Shown here piece by piece: positions 9,234 to 53,518 of a stretch of 64,000 bases of DNA (its first letter is position 1; every line of letters starts with the position of its first letter). Location of the stretch: the sequence record OQ873415.1, one strand, 5' to 3'. Made by a program: the position numbers and the translations under genes. Source of the DNA: Escherichia phage PECP20. Under the pieces are notes generated by a model. That model did no database searches and was not told the DNA's origin. It saw only the letters and a program-made list of their open reading frames with translations.

Positions 9234-9590
9234 TTAACCCCGGAGTTTATTGAGCTCTTCATAATCAATCCAGGATTCTAGCCCTGACGGCAGGTCACAT
9301 TCAATGTTCCACAGAAGCTCTTCAATGGCTTGCAGGCGATTATATTCTTCAACGGTAATGGTAACCATTGGTGCAACCGGTTCTGCCTTTTTAACCATCA
9401 TGTCATTCATCAGGACATACAAGTCATCACGAACGACGGTGTCGTTCCAACCCCATGATTTGGCTTCATACGCTAATGATGAAGGGAGCACATTTAAAAC
9501 TTCAATAATAGATGGAGATTCAGGACCAAGCTCTGATACACAAACTTCGTATGCATCTTGGAAATCTTTAAGATTTAATGAATATGTCAT
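9234..9590 (-). CDS. Hypothetical protein (118 aa)
   Basis: ORF track. Confidence 0.5.
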   Translation of the reverse strand: MTYSLNLKDFQDAYEVCVSELGPESPSIIEVLNVLPSSLAYEAKSWGWNDTVVRDDLYVLMNDMMVKKAEPVAPMVTITVEEYNRLQAIEELLWNIECDLPSGLESWIDYEELNKLRG

Positions 9591-9609
9591 TTAAAATATT
9601 CTCGCAGTT
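9588..9609. repeat. 22-bp direct repeat CATTTAAAATATTCTCGCAGTT, copy 1 (gene junction)
   Basis: Exact match to 9903-9924. Confidence 0.8.
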
Positions 9610-9905
9610 TATTGTTCTACCCAGGCATAGGAAACTTCGAAATCAGGACCACCGTATTCCCAGTGATATTCACCAACAGGAATCCAGTCACCGTGCTCGT
9701 TTTCTTCATAGTCCTCAGCCTCAAGGCCAACGAATCGCCATTGGACACCGATGATTCGATTACCCATCATTACTCTAAATTCACCCCATGGATTATCGAT
9801 AGCATATTGGATATCGTTCTTAGCACGAGAACACATTTCTTGATATAACAAAGCTTCTAATTTACCCTGGTCATAAGAGCCCGGGAAAGTTAAATCAATA
9901 CTCAT
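9609..9905 (-). CDS. Hypothetical protein (98 aa), flanked by the 22-bp direct repeats
   Basis: ORF track. Confidence 0.5.
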   Translation of the reverse strand: MSIDLTFPGSYDQGKLEALLYQEMCSRAKNDIQYAIDNPWGEFRVMMGNRIIGVQWRFVGLEAEDYEENEHGDWIPVGEYHWEYGGPDFEVSYAWVEQ

Positions 9906-10165
9906 TTAAAATATTCTCGCAGTTGGTCAAATCCACCAATATGACTTCCATCAGGAGCAAACACTTGAGGCATAGTCAATCCGACTTGTGATTCACGTCC
10001 AAGCTTAACCAGAAGCTCAGCAATTTTCTCATCATCAAAAACACCTTTTTCTGGCATAACATTAATGAATTCGAATGGCTGTTTCTTAACAGTCAGCAAT
10101 CGTTTCGCATTATCACAATAAATGCATTTATGAATAGTAGAGTCATACCCGTACACTTTAAACAT
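9902..10165 (-). CDS. nrdC: Glutaredoxin NrdC (phage thioredoxin), CIYC active site
   Basis: MFKVYGYDSTIHKCIYCDNAKRLLTVKKQPFEFINV... near-identical to T4 NrdC; 87 aa from the internal ATG. Confidence 0.9.
   Translation of the reverse strand: MFKVYGYDSTIHKCIYCDNAKRLLTVKKQPFEFINVMPEKGVFDDEKIAELLVKLGRESQVGLTMPQVFAPDGSHIGGFDQLREYFK
9903..9924. repeat. 22-bp direct repeat CATTTAAAATATTCTCGCAGTT, copy 2 (encodes the nrdC C-terminus ...REYFK and stop)
   Basis: Exact match to 9588-9609. Confidence 0.8.
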
Positions 10166-10571
10166 TATTTTTCCTTTCATCGATTAAATATGCAATGCCA
10201 AATACAATACATGTAATAAAACCTGTGATACAGATAGAAACCAACAACACTGTACCAAAGAACCAAATCAAGTTATCTTTAGTAGTTTGTTTGATATCCA
10301 TCTCACGAATTTCTATAGCTATCGTATCACCTTTATTCAGAAGCGTATAAAACGACGGTGATACACGCCTGTCAAAAACTCGTCCTTGCTCATCTTTATA
10401 GACTGCAATAAATTCTAATTTAGAATATTTTCCTGTAGATTGGCCTGAGATTAATTCCACTACCTCCACAGGAATTACTTTAGTTTCCATGTAAGTATTC
10501 TGGCTGTTCCAAATGAATGGAATAATGGCAAAAACTAAAGCTGCGATAAAACAACGAAGGCTATATCTCAT
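10158..10571 (-). CDS. Hypothetical membrane protein (137 aa; N- and C-terminal transmembrane helices)
   Basis: Hydrophobic segments in the translation. Confidence 0.5.
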   Translation of the reverse strand: MRYSLRCFIAALVFAIIPFIWNSQNTYMETKVIPVEVVELISGQSTGKYSKLEFIAVYKDEQGRVFDRRVSPSFYTLLNKGDTIAIEIREMDIKQTTKDNLIWFFGTVLLVSICITGFITCIVFGIAYLIDERKNNV

Positions 10572-10876
10572 TATAATGTTCTCTCAAATTTGTGGAAGCA
10601 TTTACGGCATTTCAATTTCAAGTTATCAGTGGTCCAGTTAACCAGTTGGACTTGGATAGTTCCACATTCCGGGCATGGATGTTTTGCTGCTGATTTGGCA
10701 GCATTTTCACGTCGTTCAACCATTTTCATTATTTCGTTCCATGCTGGAGGAACGAACTCTTCTTCACCGTGGATTTTATCTCGCTGAACAAATTCAATCT
10801 TTGAACTATCGTCAATAAACTTAACCAAGCCATGATTAGTGCTCATATCAATATCCTCTAAAAGACGTAGTTTCAT
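10571..10876 (-). CDS. Hypothetical protein with C-terminal zinc-ribbon (CPEC...CRKC), 101 aa
   Basis: Cys pairs CPEC and CRKC about 20 aa apart. Confidence 0.5.
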   Translation of the reverse strand: MKLRLLEDIDMSTNHGLVKFIDDSSKIEFVQRDKIHGEEEFVPPAWNEIMKMVERRENAAKSAAKHPCPECGTIQVQLVNWTTDNLKLKCRKCFHKFERTL

Positions 10877-11826
10877 TATAACACCTCAATGGCATTTCGT
10901 AAACCGTCCGCTTTCGCATTCAGAGTTTTTAACGATTTAGTCTGTTCTTTAATCTGGGCTTCGACTTCTTTCAGACGAGATTTGAGATATTCACGTTCTT
11001 CGCTCAAGTTGTCAACTTTTTCTACTTTAGGTTCTTTAATAGTCTTAAGTTTATACTCGTTAGGGTTCTTCAGCTTAATTCGGGTGCGAGAACTGTATAA
11101 CATTGAACCGTTATCTTCGGATTCGTCGAACGTTTCAACAACATCCATAGTCTCTAACAATGTAATAAGTTTATAAGACAATGAACGAACGGTTTTATTA
11201 TGCTTATTAATTTCTTCAGCTTTCATGGTACCGAGATTACGTGAGTAGTAATAAGGAACCTGGATATCAATTGATAATGATGCGTTACCATTACCGGTCG
11301 GTTTGAATACTGCAGTAACCCAATCTTTAACATGAACTTTATTTGTACGACAATCACCGCCCGTGAATAATTTACGAGAATGTTTAAAAAGCATATTCAC
11401 TTGGTTATTGAATTCACAAGCAAATTTATCAGCGAATTTAGTTTCAGGAATGGTAGATAACCAATCAGCCAAATGAGTCTTTTTAACATCATTAACAATA
11501 GTGAATTCAACCAAATCAGTTTTAGATGTCACAGATTTAATAAAGCTCGGTTTCATAAAGTTTTTAATGTTATCGCGAGCTACAGTAGAAGATAATAAAC
11601 GAGAACGTTTGAACCATTGAAGCAGTGTCCCTAATGAATGAGAATACGCATTCTGAGTATCTTTACAGATATGATTTTCTTGACCTGTGTATGTACCAAA
11701 ATCGCGAAGAATACCACTTACTACATCTCGGTGTGGAACATCAAATCCTAGTGCACCAACAGCGCGCTGGGCACGAACGTTAGCGATAAGACCGGCAAAG
11801 TATTCAATGTAATGTGAACGTGTCAT
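10876..11826 (-). CDS. Hypothetical protein (316 aa) with C-terminal coiled coil
   Basis: ORF track; own promoter; no recognisable catalytic motif. Confidence 0.55.
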   Translation of the reverse strand: MTRSHYIEYFAGLIANVRAQRAVGALGFDVPHRDVVSGILRDFGTYTGQENHICKDTQNAYSHSLGTLLQWFKRSRLLSSTVARDNIKNFMKPSFIKSVTSKTDLVEFTIVNDVKKTHLADWLSTIPETKFADKFACEFNNQVNMLFKHSRKLFTGGDCRTNKVHVKDWVTAVFKPTGNGNASLSIDIQVPYYYSRNLGTMKAEEINKHNKTVRSLSYKLITLLETMDVVETFDESEDNGSMLYSSRTRIKLKNPNEYKLKTIKEPKVEKVDNLSEEREYLKSRLKEVEAQIKEQTKSLKTLNAKADGLRNAIEVL

Positions 11827-11854
11827 AATATTTTCCTCTCGTTAAGATAGATTT

Positions 11855-11883
11855 ATTATACTCCAACCATCCTTGGTTGTAAA
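11855..11883 (-). promoter_or_regulatory. T4-type early promoter (-35 TTTACA, 17 nt, -10 TATAAT) inside a 30-bp repeat
   Basis: The 30-mer ATTTATTATACTCCAACCATCCTTGGTTGT (11851-11880) is identical to 12871-12900. Confidence 0.55.
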
Positions 11884-11888
11884 CCGTT

Positions 11889-12848
11889 TTATGATTTTAA
11901 TGCATTCATTGCATTAAAAAGTTTAGAGTACTGCAACTGGAGATTCGTTACAACACTTTGAGCATCACGAAGCTTAGCTTGTGCTTTGTCAAGTTCAACG
12001 GACAGTTGGTCTGCAGTAGCCTTGATTTGGTTGTAATGATAATCTTCGGCCGGAAGAAGGTCATTAGAAACATTTAGTTTTACTGCCGACAGTTTGCACA
12101 CATTTGGCAAACCTTTAAACATACCGGGTTGTGTCGGAGAATATGCGCTTAGAACCTCTGCATTACCGACTGGTGTTGCTGTGATATTGCCTTCGAACGT
12201 TGCATTTTCCTTTTTAAGATTTTGATAGTATTCAGAGTCTTTGTGCCACCATGGCGCAGGAACCTTTTTACCAATAGATACACGAGCCTGGATAGCGATA
12301 TGGCCCTTATTCTTGATAGGGTCGATAATATTAAGCTCACGAGAATAAATTGCTTTAATCTGGTGGATATTATCACCTAAAACTTCTAACGCTTGGTGGA
12401 ATACACGAGCAACGTTATCGTTCTTAGGTTTATACGTGAGAGTGAACTCGTTCTCGCTGATAACCATGATTTCCAACTTATCGTAAGTATATTTCAAATG
12501 TTTCATGTTAATTGCTTGAGGACGAATACGAGAAGCAATGGCCATCAGATTGTTAAGGTTATTCCGGAACTGCTTAGCGAAATATTGTCCTTCACCGCCA
12601 ATACAAAAATTACGAAGTTTCTGTTTGGCTAATAAACGGCTGAACTCACCATTTTTAATGAACTCTTTAACGGGCGTGTTAGTAACACATTCAAATTGAG
12701 TAAACATACGAGAAGTAATCCCATAATACGAACAGACTTCCTCAATCTCTTCAGGAGTTTTTACAGGCATACGGATAGGATTAGGTCCTGGAGTATATGC
12801 GTTCGAGGTAAATTCTTTGATAAGTTCTCTACGTGTAATAAAAGCCAT
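11889..12848 (-). CDS. Hypothetical protein (319 aa) with C-terminal coiled coil
   Basis: ORF track; own promoter. Confidence 0.55.
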   Translation of the reverse strand: MAFITRRELIKEFTSNAYTPGPNPIRMPVKTPEEIEEVCSYYGITSRMFTQFECVTNTPVKEFIKNGEFSRLLAKQKLRNFCIGGEGQYFAKQFRNNLNNLMAIASRIRPQAINMKHLKYTYDKLEIMVISENEFTLTYKPKNDNVARVFHQALEVLGDNIHQIKAIYSRELNIIDPIKNKGHIAIQARVSIGKKVPAPWWHKDSEYYQNLKKENATFEGNITATPVGNAEVLSAYSPTQPGMFKGLPNVCKLSAVKLNVSNDLLPAEDYHYNQIKATADQLSVELDKAQAKLRDAQSVVTNLQLQYSKLFNAMNALKS

Positions 12849-12874
12849 TTTATATTCCTCATGTTGAAAAATTT

Positions 12875-12903
12875 ATTATACTCCAACCATCCTTGGTTGT
12901 ACA
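12875..12903 (-). promoter_or_regulatory. T4-type early promoter (-35 TGTACA, 17 nt, -10 TATAAT) inside the second copy of the 30-bp repeat
   Basis: Identical 30-mer at 12871-12900. Confidence 0.55.
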
Positions 12904-13899
12904 TCATTCCTTAAGAAGTTTTACTACTTGAATAAGATTAGCTCGTTCTGTTTTATTTTTACCATTTAAGCCTGCTAATCGTGAGATTTCATCGTCAGTC
13001 TGTTGAATAGTTACATTAAGTTCGTTAATCAAAGCTTCAAAGTATTTGATTTGCTCAGCATGTTTTGATTCAAATTTCTGAACCGGAATAACGTCTTGGT
13101 TCAGTTCATCAATAAGGTCTTTAAGAGCATCTTCTTGGTTGATATCGTATTCAACTTCTTTTATTTCTTCAACGAACTCGTTTTTATATCTAACATCTTT
13201 TAGTCCTGGTGCCGGTCCTGAAATCTCTTCTTTAAGAGTACAAACATACCCAATACGGTATTGGATACCGTCTCGCTTGATATCAACTTCGTCGATAAAT
13301 CCGCAATGTTTAAGACCAGAGCCGATTAGGTCAAAATATCCTTGACGTCGTCCTTCAAACGTTACACGAACTACTAAGACAGTTTTGCCAGCGACCTTTT
13401 GAAGCTCACATTTATAAAAGTTCGTTGAACCTGAATAACGTGGATGAGTTTTAAAGTTCATCTGACGATCTAGGCCCATTTGTAAACGTGCTGTTACGGC
13501 CATAAAACGTGTTTGGTTCTCGTTAAGATGAGCAACAATCCATTTCAAAGGCATTTTACCCTGTTCACGACCGAACAAATCAGTACATCCTAGATTACGC
13601 AGGATGTTGTTAGAGTTAATCATCGACAGAACGTTAAGTTTATTCAGCGCGCTGAAGATTCCATCAGCCATTGATTTTCCATAACCTTTACACGCTTTAA
13701 TAAGTGCTCGCGGCAGATTAGTATAGATTTCAGACGGCATATGAAAATCAAATTTACTAGTCAGTAATTGATGAACTTGGATAGCAATTTGCTCGTAATT
13801 AAGTGCTCTGCGATCATTATGGTCTTTAAACCACACTTTAATCTGTGAAGCACATAAACCGTTAATTTCATGTTTTACCGCATCAGATGTAATGCTCAT
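12904..13899 (-). CDS. Hypothetical protein (331 aa) with C-terminal coiled coil
   Basis: ORF track; related CCNTCCTTGG promoter element upstream. Confidence 0.55.
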   Translation of the reverse strand: MSITSDAVKHEINGLCASQIKVWFKDHNDRRALNYEQIAIQVHQLLTSKFDFHMPSEIYTNLPRALIKACKGYGKSMADGIFSALNKLNVLSMINSNNILRNLGCTDLFGREQGKMPLKWIVAHLNENQTRFMAVTARLQMGLDRQMNFKTHPRYSGSTNFYKCELQKVAGKTVLVVRVTFEGRRQGYFDLIGSGLKHCGFIDEVDIKRDGIQYRIGYVCTLKEEISGPAPGLKDVRYKNEFVEEIKEVEYDINQEDALKDLIDELNQDVIPVQKFESKHAEQIKYFEALINELNVTIQQTDDEISRLAGLNGKNKTERANLIQVVKLLKE

Positions 13900-13961
13900 A
13901 ACTATTTCCTCAGATTGAATTGGAACTCAAAACCATTATAACCCGTCCTTGGGTAAAGCGT

Positions 13962-14489
13962 TTATGCGTGAACCGTCTTTAAACGTTCTTCAAATTTCCG
14001 AAGAGTACTAATACGTTCTGCTTTCTGTTTTGTATAGTTTGCAATACGTTCTGAAGTGAGAGCGTATCGTTCGTTTACTGTTTCTTTCATGAAGTCAGGG
14101 ATTTCACGAGAAGCTTTAATTTCATCAAACTTGTCGAGTACTGCCTGGTCTTCAGCGATTAAATTTTCATACATCTCGATATCTTTCTTGATAAACTCGA
14201 TATCTTCCTGGGTTACTTTGGATAAACGAGACGCTTTATCCTTTTTGTACTGCTCGTTAGTTTCACGAGACCAGAATAATGTACGTTTTTTGTTAGTGTT
14301 TTTGTAGACTTCCACAATTCCAACTGAATCGATGATAACAATCCAATTCCAGCGAGATTTGAAAATCTGACCTCCGTCCACGGTAATCTCGTTATCATAA
14401 GCAACGTCATTAAAGAACTTGCTTTGTGCTTCAGATTTAAATTTACCGTCGTTATAATTTACCAGGTTGAAAATATCTTTAGCGTTCAT
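13962..14489 (-). CDS. Hypothetical protein (175 aa)
   Basis: ORF track; GGAGG ribosome-binding site; early promoter upstream. Confidence 0.55.
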   Translation of the reverse strand: MNAKDIFNLVNYNDGKFKSEAQSKFFNDVAYDNEITVDGGQIFKSRWNWIVIIDSVGIVEVYKNTNKKRTLFWSRETNEQYKKDKASRLSKVTQEDIEFIKKDIEMYENLIAEDQAVLDKFDEIKASREIPDFMKETVNERYALTSERIANYTKQKAERISTLRKFEERLKTVHA

Positions 14490-33388: not shown

Positions 33389-33417
33389 ATAGTAACACCA
33401 TCCTTGGCGTTTGTACA
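33389..33417 (-). promoter_or_regulatory. T4-type early promoter (TGTACA, 17 nt, TACTAT)
   Basis: Minus-strand read; contains the CCATCCTTGG core. Confidence 0.45.
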
Positions 33418-52859: not shown

Positions 52860-53518
52860 TGACCATACTTAATACTAAAGCGGGAGTAATATCCCGCGAA
52901 GCAGATTTTTTAGGATTTAGAAAAAATCCTACTCAAATTGATATTTTAAACAACCAAGGCGTAGGTTCTGTAACTATTTCTCAATTGGCAAAAGGATTCT
53001 ACGATGATAACGTGGAATCTGCAATAAACGATGTTCATAATATTGCTAGAGCAGATGTAGGAACAGTTACAATTAACACCTCAGGTGTATCTCCTGAAGG
53101 AACTTCACAGGTAGATTATTGGTCATTTAGTGGAAGTGTAACTGACCCTAGTTTGCCCGATGGAAGCCCTGTTATTGTAAAAGTTTACGGGCTTCCTGTT
53201 AACGCTACTGTAGGTATGACAGCCGACGAATTTGTTGTACAATTACGTACTACTCTCCGGAATGCGATTTCCGACCAATTGGCTATTGCAGAGTATAAAG
53301 ATGACCCTACTGTTGGGACTAAATTACAAATAACATATTTAGATAACCAAAGACACATACTCCCAACGTATTCCGCTTATGGTATCACGGTTTCTCAAGA
53401 AATAGTGTCTCAGGCTAAGTCCGGATACGGCACTTGGAATTTACTAGGTGCGCAAACCATTACTCTTGACAACCATACTTCACCTACAACCTTTTATTAT
53501 TTTGTGAGAAGCGCATGA
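52859..53518 (+). CDS. 11: Baseplate wedge protein gp11
   Basis: 219 aa from the ATG overlapping the gp10 stop (TAATG). Confidence 0.85.

Follow-up and report, generated by a model that had tools for sequence, protein, structure and literature searches.

The nrdC.3-nrdC.6 block of a Mosigvirus: repeated promoter cassettes and a likely array of counter-defence genes

Genes of the nrdC.3-nrdC.6 block

The window analysed here comprises 64,000 nucleotides of Escherichia phage PECP20 (OQ873415.1), and our subject is a group of three consecutive accessory genes within it, designated W316, W319 and W331 after the lengths of their products, together with the promoter-like elements that precede them. 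The three open reading frames (ORFs) of 316, 319 and 331 aa proposed in the initial annotation are all present and all lie on the minus strand, which carries every gene of the region. The phage is a Mosigvirus, an RB69-like member of the T-even group; over the segment 10500-14600 it shares 99.8% identity with Escherichia phage CCU7 and 99.5% with Shigella phage Shf125875, and the annotated relative ATK47 is classed as a Mosigvirus. The genes belong to the nrdC-mobD region and form the Mosigvirus counterpart of the nrdC.3-nrdC.6 accessory block of T4.

W316 (10876-11826, minus strand; PHROG 1435) is the orthologue of T4 NrdC.3, with 56% identity (E = 3.5e-118), and a paralogue of T4 NrdC.4, which has no counterpart in the window. 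W319 (11889-12848, minus strand) is a member of the NrdC.5 family, Pfam DUF7235 (PF23882). It matches positions 1-307 of the 307 positions of the profile at 400.1 bits (E = 9.6e-120; gathering cut-off 30), full length like T4 NrdC.5 itself (420.6 bits, E = 5.3e-126); the two proteins are 24.7% identical over 336 aa, and their genes are syntenic, W319 lying downstream of nrdC.6. W331 (12904-13899, minus strand; PHROG 2257, E = 1e-126) is the orthologue of the T-even NrdC.6 proteins, to which it is 29-33% identical, and its homologues carry the precomputed Pfam assignment PF26899. No motif had originally been assigned to any of the three products; this is superseded for W319 by the full-length DUF7235 match, although the library scans gave no domain match in W316, W319 or W331 beyond domains of unknown function (DUFs). 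Scans with NCBIfam, PADLOC and Rfam returned nothing useful, and the PDB sequences contain no relatives of the three proteins. The NrdC.3, NrdC.5 and NrdC.6 families were found only in T-even phages (653, 157 and 741 phage records, respectively), and an exhaustive search of 1.84 billion proteins with the NrdC.3 profile gave only 5 matches, with no bacterial or distant relative.

The gene content of the block varies among the T-even lineages. In Tequatrovirus the order is C.8-C.7-C.6-C.5-C.4-C.3-C.2-C.1-nrdC, in Mosigvirus, as represented by the window, C.8-C.6-C.5-C.3-C.2-C.7-nrdC, and in a third lineage, known from IMG/VR contigs (L012 and L013), C.8-C.6-C.5-C.4-C.2-C.1-nrdC. The synteny anchor is the conserved neighbour upstream of W331, an NrdC.8 orthologue of 175 aa (13962-14489, minus strand; PHROG 2274) with 83% identity to T4 NrdC.8.

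Two existing annotations of these genes deserve mention. Homologues of NrdC.1 to NrdC.11 are widely labelled "thioredoxin" in GenBank (for example in ATK47, L001, 3377-6400) without any match to a thioredoxin fold, and the label is a propagation from the gene name nrdC.x; a thioredoxin or glutaredoxin identity was likewise rejected for W316, W319 and W331, in which no such Pfam or NCBIfam match occurs. In ATK47 a "possible binding site of StbAB" is also noted, which is an unsupported 11-nt stretch inside the coding sequence of the W331 orthologue.

Promoter cassettes and their stem-loops

A promoter-like cassette of its own and a Shine-Dalgarno sequence stand before each of the three genes. 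Upstream of W316 and W319, the exact 30-mer reported previously was recovered at 11851-11880 and 12871-12900, respectively. With up to three mismatches allowed, these are its only copies in the window, against none expected in shuffled sequence, and the repeat is thus not a widespread generic promoter. The identity is exact over 31 nt (11851-11881 and 12871-12901) and extends at 88% over 43 nt, with a start-to-start distance of 1,020 bp; on the coding strand the repeat reads ACAACCAAGGATGGTTGGAGTATAATAAAT. The initial annotation placed a -35/-10 pair within the 30-mer. The exact repeat does contain the -10 hexamer and the spacer, but of the -35 no more than the final 3 nt. Together with the flanks, the promoters read TTTACA-N17-TATAAT before W316 (11/12) and TGTACA-N17-TATAAT before W319 (10/12). 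No other sigma-70-like match on the region's coding strand scores as well, and both fit the consensus TTTACW-N17-TAYWAT described for the promoter-early stem-loops (PeSLs) of T4/PST (PMC4122927).

Cassette A, before W316, occupies 11846-11888 (minus strand), with the -35 TTTACA at 11883-11878, the -10 TATAAT at 11860-11855 and a predicted transcription start near 11848; the inverted repeat CAACCA-AGGA-TGGTTG lies between them at 11879-11864 and is followed by GGAG. Cassette B, before W319, occupies 12866-12908 (minus strand) and is built in the same way, with the -35 TGTACA (12903-12898) abutting the stop codon of W331, the hairpin at 12899-12884, the -10 TATAAT at 12880-12875 and a predicted start near 12868.

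The related element that had been reported before the third gene is indeed found upstream of W331, as CCAAGGACGG at 13943-13952 (plus strand CCGTCCTTGG); the window contains its core, CCAAGGAYGG, 4 times, where 0.1 occurrences would be expected. It forms part of a cassette of the middle-promoter type (13928-13961, minus strand), composed of a MotA-box-like CGCTTTA (13960-13954), a hairpin ACCC-AAGGAC-GGGT (13954-13941) and a -10 TATAAT (13940-13935). The arrangement AAACGCTTTA, 13 nt, TATAAT agrees with the reference MotA box, (a/t)(a/t)(a/t)TGCTTtA at 12 +/- 1 bp from TAtaaT, with one core mismatch (C for T) that is shared with the mapped T4 promoter PnrdC.7. The latter is an experimentally mapped, MotA-dependent middle promoter with its start site at 53325 (Hinton 2010, PMC2988021, Table 1, citing Stoskiene et al. 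2007). In T4 the element after nrdC.8, CGCTTTA-TACCAAGGATGG-TATAAT (with the boundaries drawn differently, CGCTTTA-TACCAAGGATGGTA-TAAT), occupies the same place as the W331 element. Because the -10 of the T4 element sits 7 nt before the mapped start, we regard the W331 element as the orthologue of PnrdC.7. Both follow nrdC.8 directly and share the CGCTTTA box, the CCAAGGAYGG core and TATAAT at 12-13 nt. Unlike its T4 counterpart, the window element precedes the nrdC.6 orthologue, since nrdC.7 has moved to a position between nrdC.2 and nrdC, and its stem is ACCC/GGGT rather than the 8-bp TTATACCA/TGGTATAA of T4; moreover, the T4 promoter was mapped experimentally, whereas the Mosigvirus one is predicted from sequence. 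Further T4 elements stand before nrdC.4 (GTTTAC-TTTG-CCACAAGGATGTGG-TATAAT) and before nrdC.3 (AGCCAAGGATGGCT-CGGAG-TATAAAT).

A fourth member of the family lies elsewhere in the window, at 33391-33417 (minus strand; TGTACA-AACGCCA-AGGA-TGGTGTT-ACTAT), between the genes for a 167-aa and a 75-aa protein of another accessory region. It has in common with cassette B the stop/-35 junction ATGATGTACAA.

The inverted repeat is thus contained in the 17-nt spacer of both repeat promoters, and the intergenic RNA of cassette A folds at -8.4 kcal/mol. This feature had been overlooked before. Conservation of the stem was assessed in an alignment (A4) of 7 independent T-even elements, comprising 12 sequence variants of a six-pair stem. 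Base pairs occupy 88.9% of the alignment cells, compared to 62.7 +/- 4.1% in shuffled alignments, none of which (0/500) reached the observed value, and to 15-42% when the register was slid. Four of the six pairs have been altered on both sides, with AU, CG, GC and UA all represented. The AGGA loop is invariant across the elements. As a distinguishing feature of the cassettes, AGGA alone was dropped, because (A/T)AGGA is also common in the spacers of T-even early promoters of the window that lack a stem; it is the covarying stem that is distinctive. Hairpins with an AGGA loop that adjoin a -10 on the coding strand number four in the 64 kb, three of which are in the nrdC block.

The hairpin has no U-tract and was not called by the terminator scan, and an intrinsic terminator was ruled out for the former reason; Rfam has no match in the region. 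GGAG follows the stem directly in 4 of the 7 elements. It is found after the hairpin of the two repeats (11861-11864 and 12881-12884), of the T4 element before nrdC.3 and of the element before nrdC.4 in contig L013. GGAG followed by UAUAAUAAA (GGAG-UAUAAUA) agrees at 5 of 7 positions with the strong RegB/S1 consensus GG*AGRAYARAA (PMC3014915), and its sequence suggests that it may be an mRNA-processing site.

The nearest published relatives of these cassettes are the PeSLs, composite cassettes associated with modular shuffling and mini-circles in T4-like phages (Arbiol et al. 2010, PMC2839356; Comeau et al. 2014, PMC4122927). In RB49 and phi1, deletion of a PeSL-flanked ORF and the formation of mini-circles were demonstrated experimentally (PMC2839356). 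Like the PeSL/PmSL elements, the cassettes of the window are intergenic components of a hyperplastic region that combine an early sigma-70-like or MotA-type middle promoter with a stem-loop. They likewise stand beside non-essential ORFs and occur in several copies (4 per 64 kb, 3 of them clustered), and an ORF is lost exactly between two cassettes in close relatives, as for ORF192 of RB49 compared with phi1. There are also differences. The stems are of the form NNCCA/TGGNN with an AGGA loop, instead of the reported AGNA...TCNT or G/C-tract stems; they have no U-tract, and any terminator role would be putative. Only 0-10 nt separate the -35 from the stop codon upstream of it, and with the stem-loop placed in the 17-nt spacer the cassettes are a positional variant of the PeSL. 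The cases analysed in the PeSL papers do not include the Mosigvirus nrdC block.

A repeat-bounded gene, present or absent, and probable relatedness of the proteins

The two repeats mark the limits of a cassette that holds the nrdC.5-like gene. When the DNA between the repeats was removed in silico, by joining 11527-11880 to 12901-13203, the resulting 657-nt junction was found as a single contiguous, full-length high-scoring segment pair at 96-97.7% identity in 20 records, representing about 18 distinct Mosigviruses. These include p000v, G2469, G2285, PTE-Eco05, WFL6982, WFK, JM10 and JM17, as well as FL18, FL31, seven AV phages, F2 and F27. In p000v, W331 adjoins W316 through one hybrid cassette that has the 5' flank of copy B and the 3' flank of copy A. 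The W319 gene is retained in about 132 records. Since both other lineages carry nrdC.5 at this place, it is simpler to assume that the gene was lost, by recombination between the repeats, than that it was gained.

A second repeat-bounded gene is present in the vicinity. The gene for a 98-aa protein (9609-9905, minus strand) is flanked by exact 23-bp direct repeats (9587-9609 and 9902-9924), forming a 315-bp unit. The repeat, AACTGCGAGAATATTTTAAATGA on the coding strand, consists of the 3' end of nrdC and an ATGA stop/start overlap and is not a promoter. The corresponding junction is contiguous, and the gene absent, in RB69, AV117, JN02, NHEP29 and DCP548, and in CAU_ECP01, phiE142, CEV1 and SF it is interrupted by 315 bp.

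The proposal that the three proteins be compared with each other has been followed, with a graded outcome. Pairwise BLAST detected no similarity among W316, W319 and W331 and gave a hint of a link between NrdC.3 and NrdC.4; the NrdC.3 profile reached an NrdC.4-like protein at E = 1.6e-6 (1.84e9 proteins searched). Profile comparison gave no signal with the shallow alignments A1-A3 (effective sequence number, Neff, 1.2-1.5). After addition of orthologues from T4, RB10 and the third lineage, so that three lineages were represented in total, hhalign aligned NrdC.3 with NrdC.4 with a local score of 93.6 and a global score of 91.3 (probability 98-99%, E of about 1e-13 to 1e-16), and the two are clearly paralogues at the sequence level. 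The combined NrdC.3 and NrdC.4 profile scored 34.1 (local) and 30.6 (global) against NrdC.5, with a probability of 26-63% (81-93% in a first, smaller set), and the profile of all three scored 40.4 and 35.1 against NrdC.6 (probability 64-81%; E = 6.5e-5 and 1.4e-6). Reversed or unrelated families, in 46 comparisons, scored at most 21.8 locally and 12.0 globally. The alignment with NrdC.6 falls in the body of the proteins, outside the coiled coil, on a shared motif (…SRLLS…I.NF… F..N…L…A.RL..G.DR…). NrdC.5 and NrdC.6 are therefore probable remote members of the NrdC.3/NrdC.4 family.

Structure prediction, which had also been proposed, was less informative. The AlphaFold2 (AF2) models of W316 and W331 are both of low confidence, with predicted local distance difference test (pLDDT) values of 50.5 and 46.5. 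They nevertheless show a similar order of secondary structure, with 67% agreement along the alignment compared to 41-59% when it was shifted. Common to both are about four N-terminal helices, a helix pair at about 118-148, a beta-hairpin, a helix, a second beta-hairpin, a linker and a C-terminal helix. Searches of BFVD with both models returned orthologues and weak matches, of which E5EYP0 was common to the two with a template modelling (TM) score of about 0.2. C-terminal coiled coils had been predicted for all three proteins. For W316 (about 268-316) and W319 (about 262-319) a heptad signal is evident that none of 200 shuffles reached, and a long helix spans 275-315 in the W316 model. For W331 the heptad score is not above that of the shuffles (58/200 reach it); the C-terminus is helical in its low-confidence model, and a coiled coil is plausible there. 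In the T4 reference (NC_000866; L002 8067-8140) nrdC.6 encodes 275 aa and carries a frameshift near its 3' end, compared to 295 aa in RB10, ACG-C40 and T6 and 331 aa in the window; the C-terminal helical segment lost from the T4 product is still readable in another frame.

A probable counter-defence role and alternative readings

A function has been reported for one T4 member of the block. An experimentally evolved T4 clone with a deletion that removes nrdC.5 is unable to infect ECOR17 or MG1655 carrying the sirtuin gene dsr1, and plasmid-borne T4 nrdC.5 restores plating of the deletion mutant on dsr1+ cells (Srikant, Guegler and Laub, eLife 2022, PMC9391042). In the literature we found no later mechanistic work on NrdC.5 and no functional mention of NrdC.3, NrdC.4 or NrdC.6. 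W319 resembles T4 NrdC.5 in being a full-length DUF7235 protein of similar length with a C-terminal coiled coil, encoded between nrdC.6 and the next paralogue; it differs in sequence (about 25% identity), and activity against Dsr1 has been shown for the T4 protein only. The genes of the block bear the hallmarks of an arms race, being dispensable, patchy in distribution and fast-diverging. Between Mosigvirus and T4, NrdC.5 is 25%, NrdC.6 about 30% and NrdC.3 56% identical, as opposed to 78-92% for the neighbouring NrdC, NrdC.8, NrdC.10 and NrdC.11, and ACG-C40 lacks about 2.9 kb from nrdC.5 to nrdC.3. In that phage (L004 5805-6215) about 71 codons from the start of nrdC.5 are fused to the C-terminal coding part of nrdC.3 and nrdC.4 is gone; the end points of the deletion are not at promoter cassettes.

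On balance we think it likely that the Mosigvirus nrdC.3-nrdC.6 block is an array of counter-defence paralogues, self-promoted and bounded by repeats. The initial annotation had described a modular array of independently promoted accessory genes in the nrdC-tk hypervariable region, and this description is borne out by the cassette before each gene, the gene content that varies with lineage and the repeat-bounded middle gene, although the spacer hairpin, the PeSL precedent, the link through DUF7235 to anti-Dsr1 activity and the probable paralogy had escaped it. Three early or middle genes would each carry a composite regulatory element in a short intergenic gap, namely a T-even early promoter (TTTACA/TGTACA-N17-TATAAT) or, before W331, a middle promoter of the MotA type. 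In read-through transcripts the stem-loop would lie at the 3' end of the upstream cistron, where it might act as an attenuator or a 3'-end protector, and transcripts begun at the cassette's own promoter would be free of it. The two identical 31-bp cassettes around W319 could provide short homologies for the phage recombination system, so that the gene and one cassette (1,020 bp) would be excisable and, in principle, re-insertable as a mini-circle; this mechanism is inferred by analogy with the PeSL model. The three proteins of about 320 aa would be diverged members of one family, each with a helical or alpha-beta body followed by a C-terminal coiled coil. T4 NrdC.5 neutralises the NAD+-depleting Dsr1 sirtuin defence and, because W319 belongs to the same Pfam family, counter-defence is the most likely role of the array. 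The body of each protein might bind a host immune protein while the coiled coil oligomerises the inhibitor, and the paralogues may be aimed at different defences or at variants of one.

Several observations weigh against this reading. The cassettes show the pattern of PeSL shuffling but depart from the definition of a PeSL in the position of the stem-loop, which in the published elements is just upstream of the -35 and here is inside the -35/-10 spacer. The evidence that the stem-loop is conserved under selection is good, not overwhelming, as the covariation sample is small and was picked by its conserved core, and the missing U-tract and the negative terminator scan count against the proposed RNA role. 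The AF2 models are poor and make a shared fold no more than tentative, and the links of NrdC.5 and NrdC.6 to the other proteins rest on moderate profile scores (26-81%). The indel at the non-promoter 23-bp repeat indicates that any short repeat may suffice, without the promoter cassette having to be a site dedicated to recombination. Finally, at about 25% identity to T4 NrdC.5, W319 may have a different target.

The repeats themselves lend themselves to three other explanations. We hold it very unlikely that they are no more than a strong early promoter present twice, its copies held alike by selection for promoter strength, with an accidental hairpin and no part in recombination. Many T-even early promoters of the window do have the (A/T)AGGA spacer without a stem, and the promoter-like sites of the region, 11 compared to 14.1 in shuffles, are not in excess; but exact identity over 31 nt exceeds what a consensus demands, the stems covary, and in about 18 phages both ends of the W319 indel lie exactly in the repeats, which had already weakened this explanation. 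Somewhat less improbable, yet still unlikely, is that the AGGA-loop hairpin with GGAG is primarily an RNA-processing or protein-binding signal, such as a RegB/S1 module, that separates the cistrons and caps the upstream mRNA, the fit to a promoter being secondary. The invariant loop, the GGAG after 4 of the 7 stems and the 5/7 match to the RegB consensus would agree with such a signal, whereas GGAG is missing from three of the elements, one element has a mapped promoter as its T4 counterpart, and Rfam detects nothing in the region. More serious, if still doubtful, is the possibility that the repeats are left over from a tandem duplication of promoter and gene to which the array owes its origin, kept alike by gene conversion, W319 having been lost by unequal crossing-over with no mobility system involved. 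The probable paralogy of the genes, a repeat period of one gene unit, the homology of less than 50 bp required for T4 recombination (PMC2839356) and the similar behaviour of the 23-bp non-promoter repeat all accord with it. Against it, the coding sequences have diverged past pairwise recognition while the cassettes are identical, and the nrdC.6-nrdC.5 junction of Tequatrovirus has no cassette, so that the cassettes are no fixed part of an ancient unit. This explanation overlaps heavily with the one we prefer and differs from it mainly in wording.

With respect to function, the proteins might instead be host-takeover or scaffold factors, for example coiled-coil cytoskeletal or nucleoid-associated proteins, with the anti-Dsr1 activity a peculiarity of T4 NrdC.5. 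That domain matches are limited to DUFs, that the PDB sequences offer no relatives and that W319 is so distant from T4 NrdC.5 would be compatible with this; the full-length membership of W319 in the Pfam family of T4 NrdC.5 and the arms-race character of the genes speak for counter-defence, and we see only a limited chance that the takeover alternative is correct. A bolder extension of the counter-defence reading is that NrdC.3, NrdC.4, NrdC.5 and NrdC.6 make up a single, rapidly diversifying superfamily whose coiled-coil members inhibit host immune sensors, Dsr1-type sirtuin NADases being the first target known and each paralogue being tuned to a different defence, and that the hairpin-in-spacer cassettes form a dedicated, integron-like system for the exchange of self-expressing 1-kb modules. 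We consider this improbable, though worth stating.

PeSL-type cassettes and the nrdC.x accessory genes, including the anti-Dsr1 family, were known before. New are the covarying stem-loop embedded in the spacer, the exact repeat-bounded presence or absence of an NrdC.5-like gene, and the probable paralogy of NrdC.3 to NrdC.6. The analysis joins two published strands, the shuffling of PeSL cassettes and the defeat of Dsr1 by T4 nrdC.5, in that a homologue of an anti-defence gene is itself a self-promoted, repeat-bounded cassette, with which about 130 sequenced Mosigvirus genomes are equipped and which about 18 cleanly lack. The finding will not surprise a T4 specialist. It does, however, supply natural, isogenic-like pairs for the study of host-range effects (CCU7 or Shf125875 versus p000v), and the probable paralogy nominates NrdC.3, NrdC.4 and NrdC.6 as candidates for counter-defence in T4. 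The covarying hairpin within a promoter spacer makes for a compact design, in which a single 30-bp element may combine a promoter for the downstream gene, a 3' structure for the upstream RNA and a handle for recombination. Comparable loci are the internal-protein (IP) locus of T-even phages and the dmd-tifA-adfA "anti-TA island" of T4 (PMC4122927, PMC9391042), which also consist of small, fast-evolving, dispensable early anti-defence genes shuffled among relatives; their proteins are unrelated, and the present block appears to be made up of paralogues from one family of about 320 aa.

Two minor observations concern the downstream end of the block. A further sigma-70-like match with an extended -10 (TTTACG-17-TATAAT after TG) lies at 10875-10903 (minus strand), just where the coding part of W316 ends. 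The stop codon of W316 and the start codon of nrdC.2 both overlap with its -10, so that no translatable nrdC.2 mRNA could arise from it; the match may be due to chance or may serve genes farther downstream as a promoter. Beyond nrdC.2, a predicted membrane protein (10158-10571, minus strand) is 41% identical to T4 NrdC.7. Its gene, which in T4 lies between nrdC.8 and nrdC.6, is found in the Mosigviruses between nrdC.2 and nrdC in place of nrdC.1, as a relocated module.

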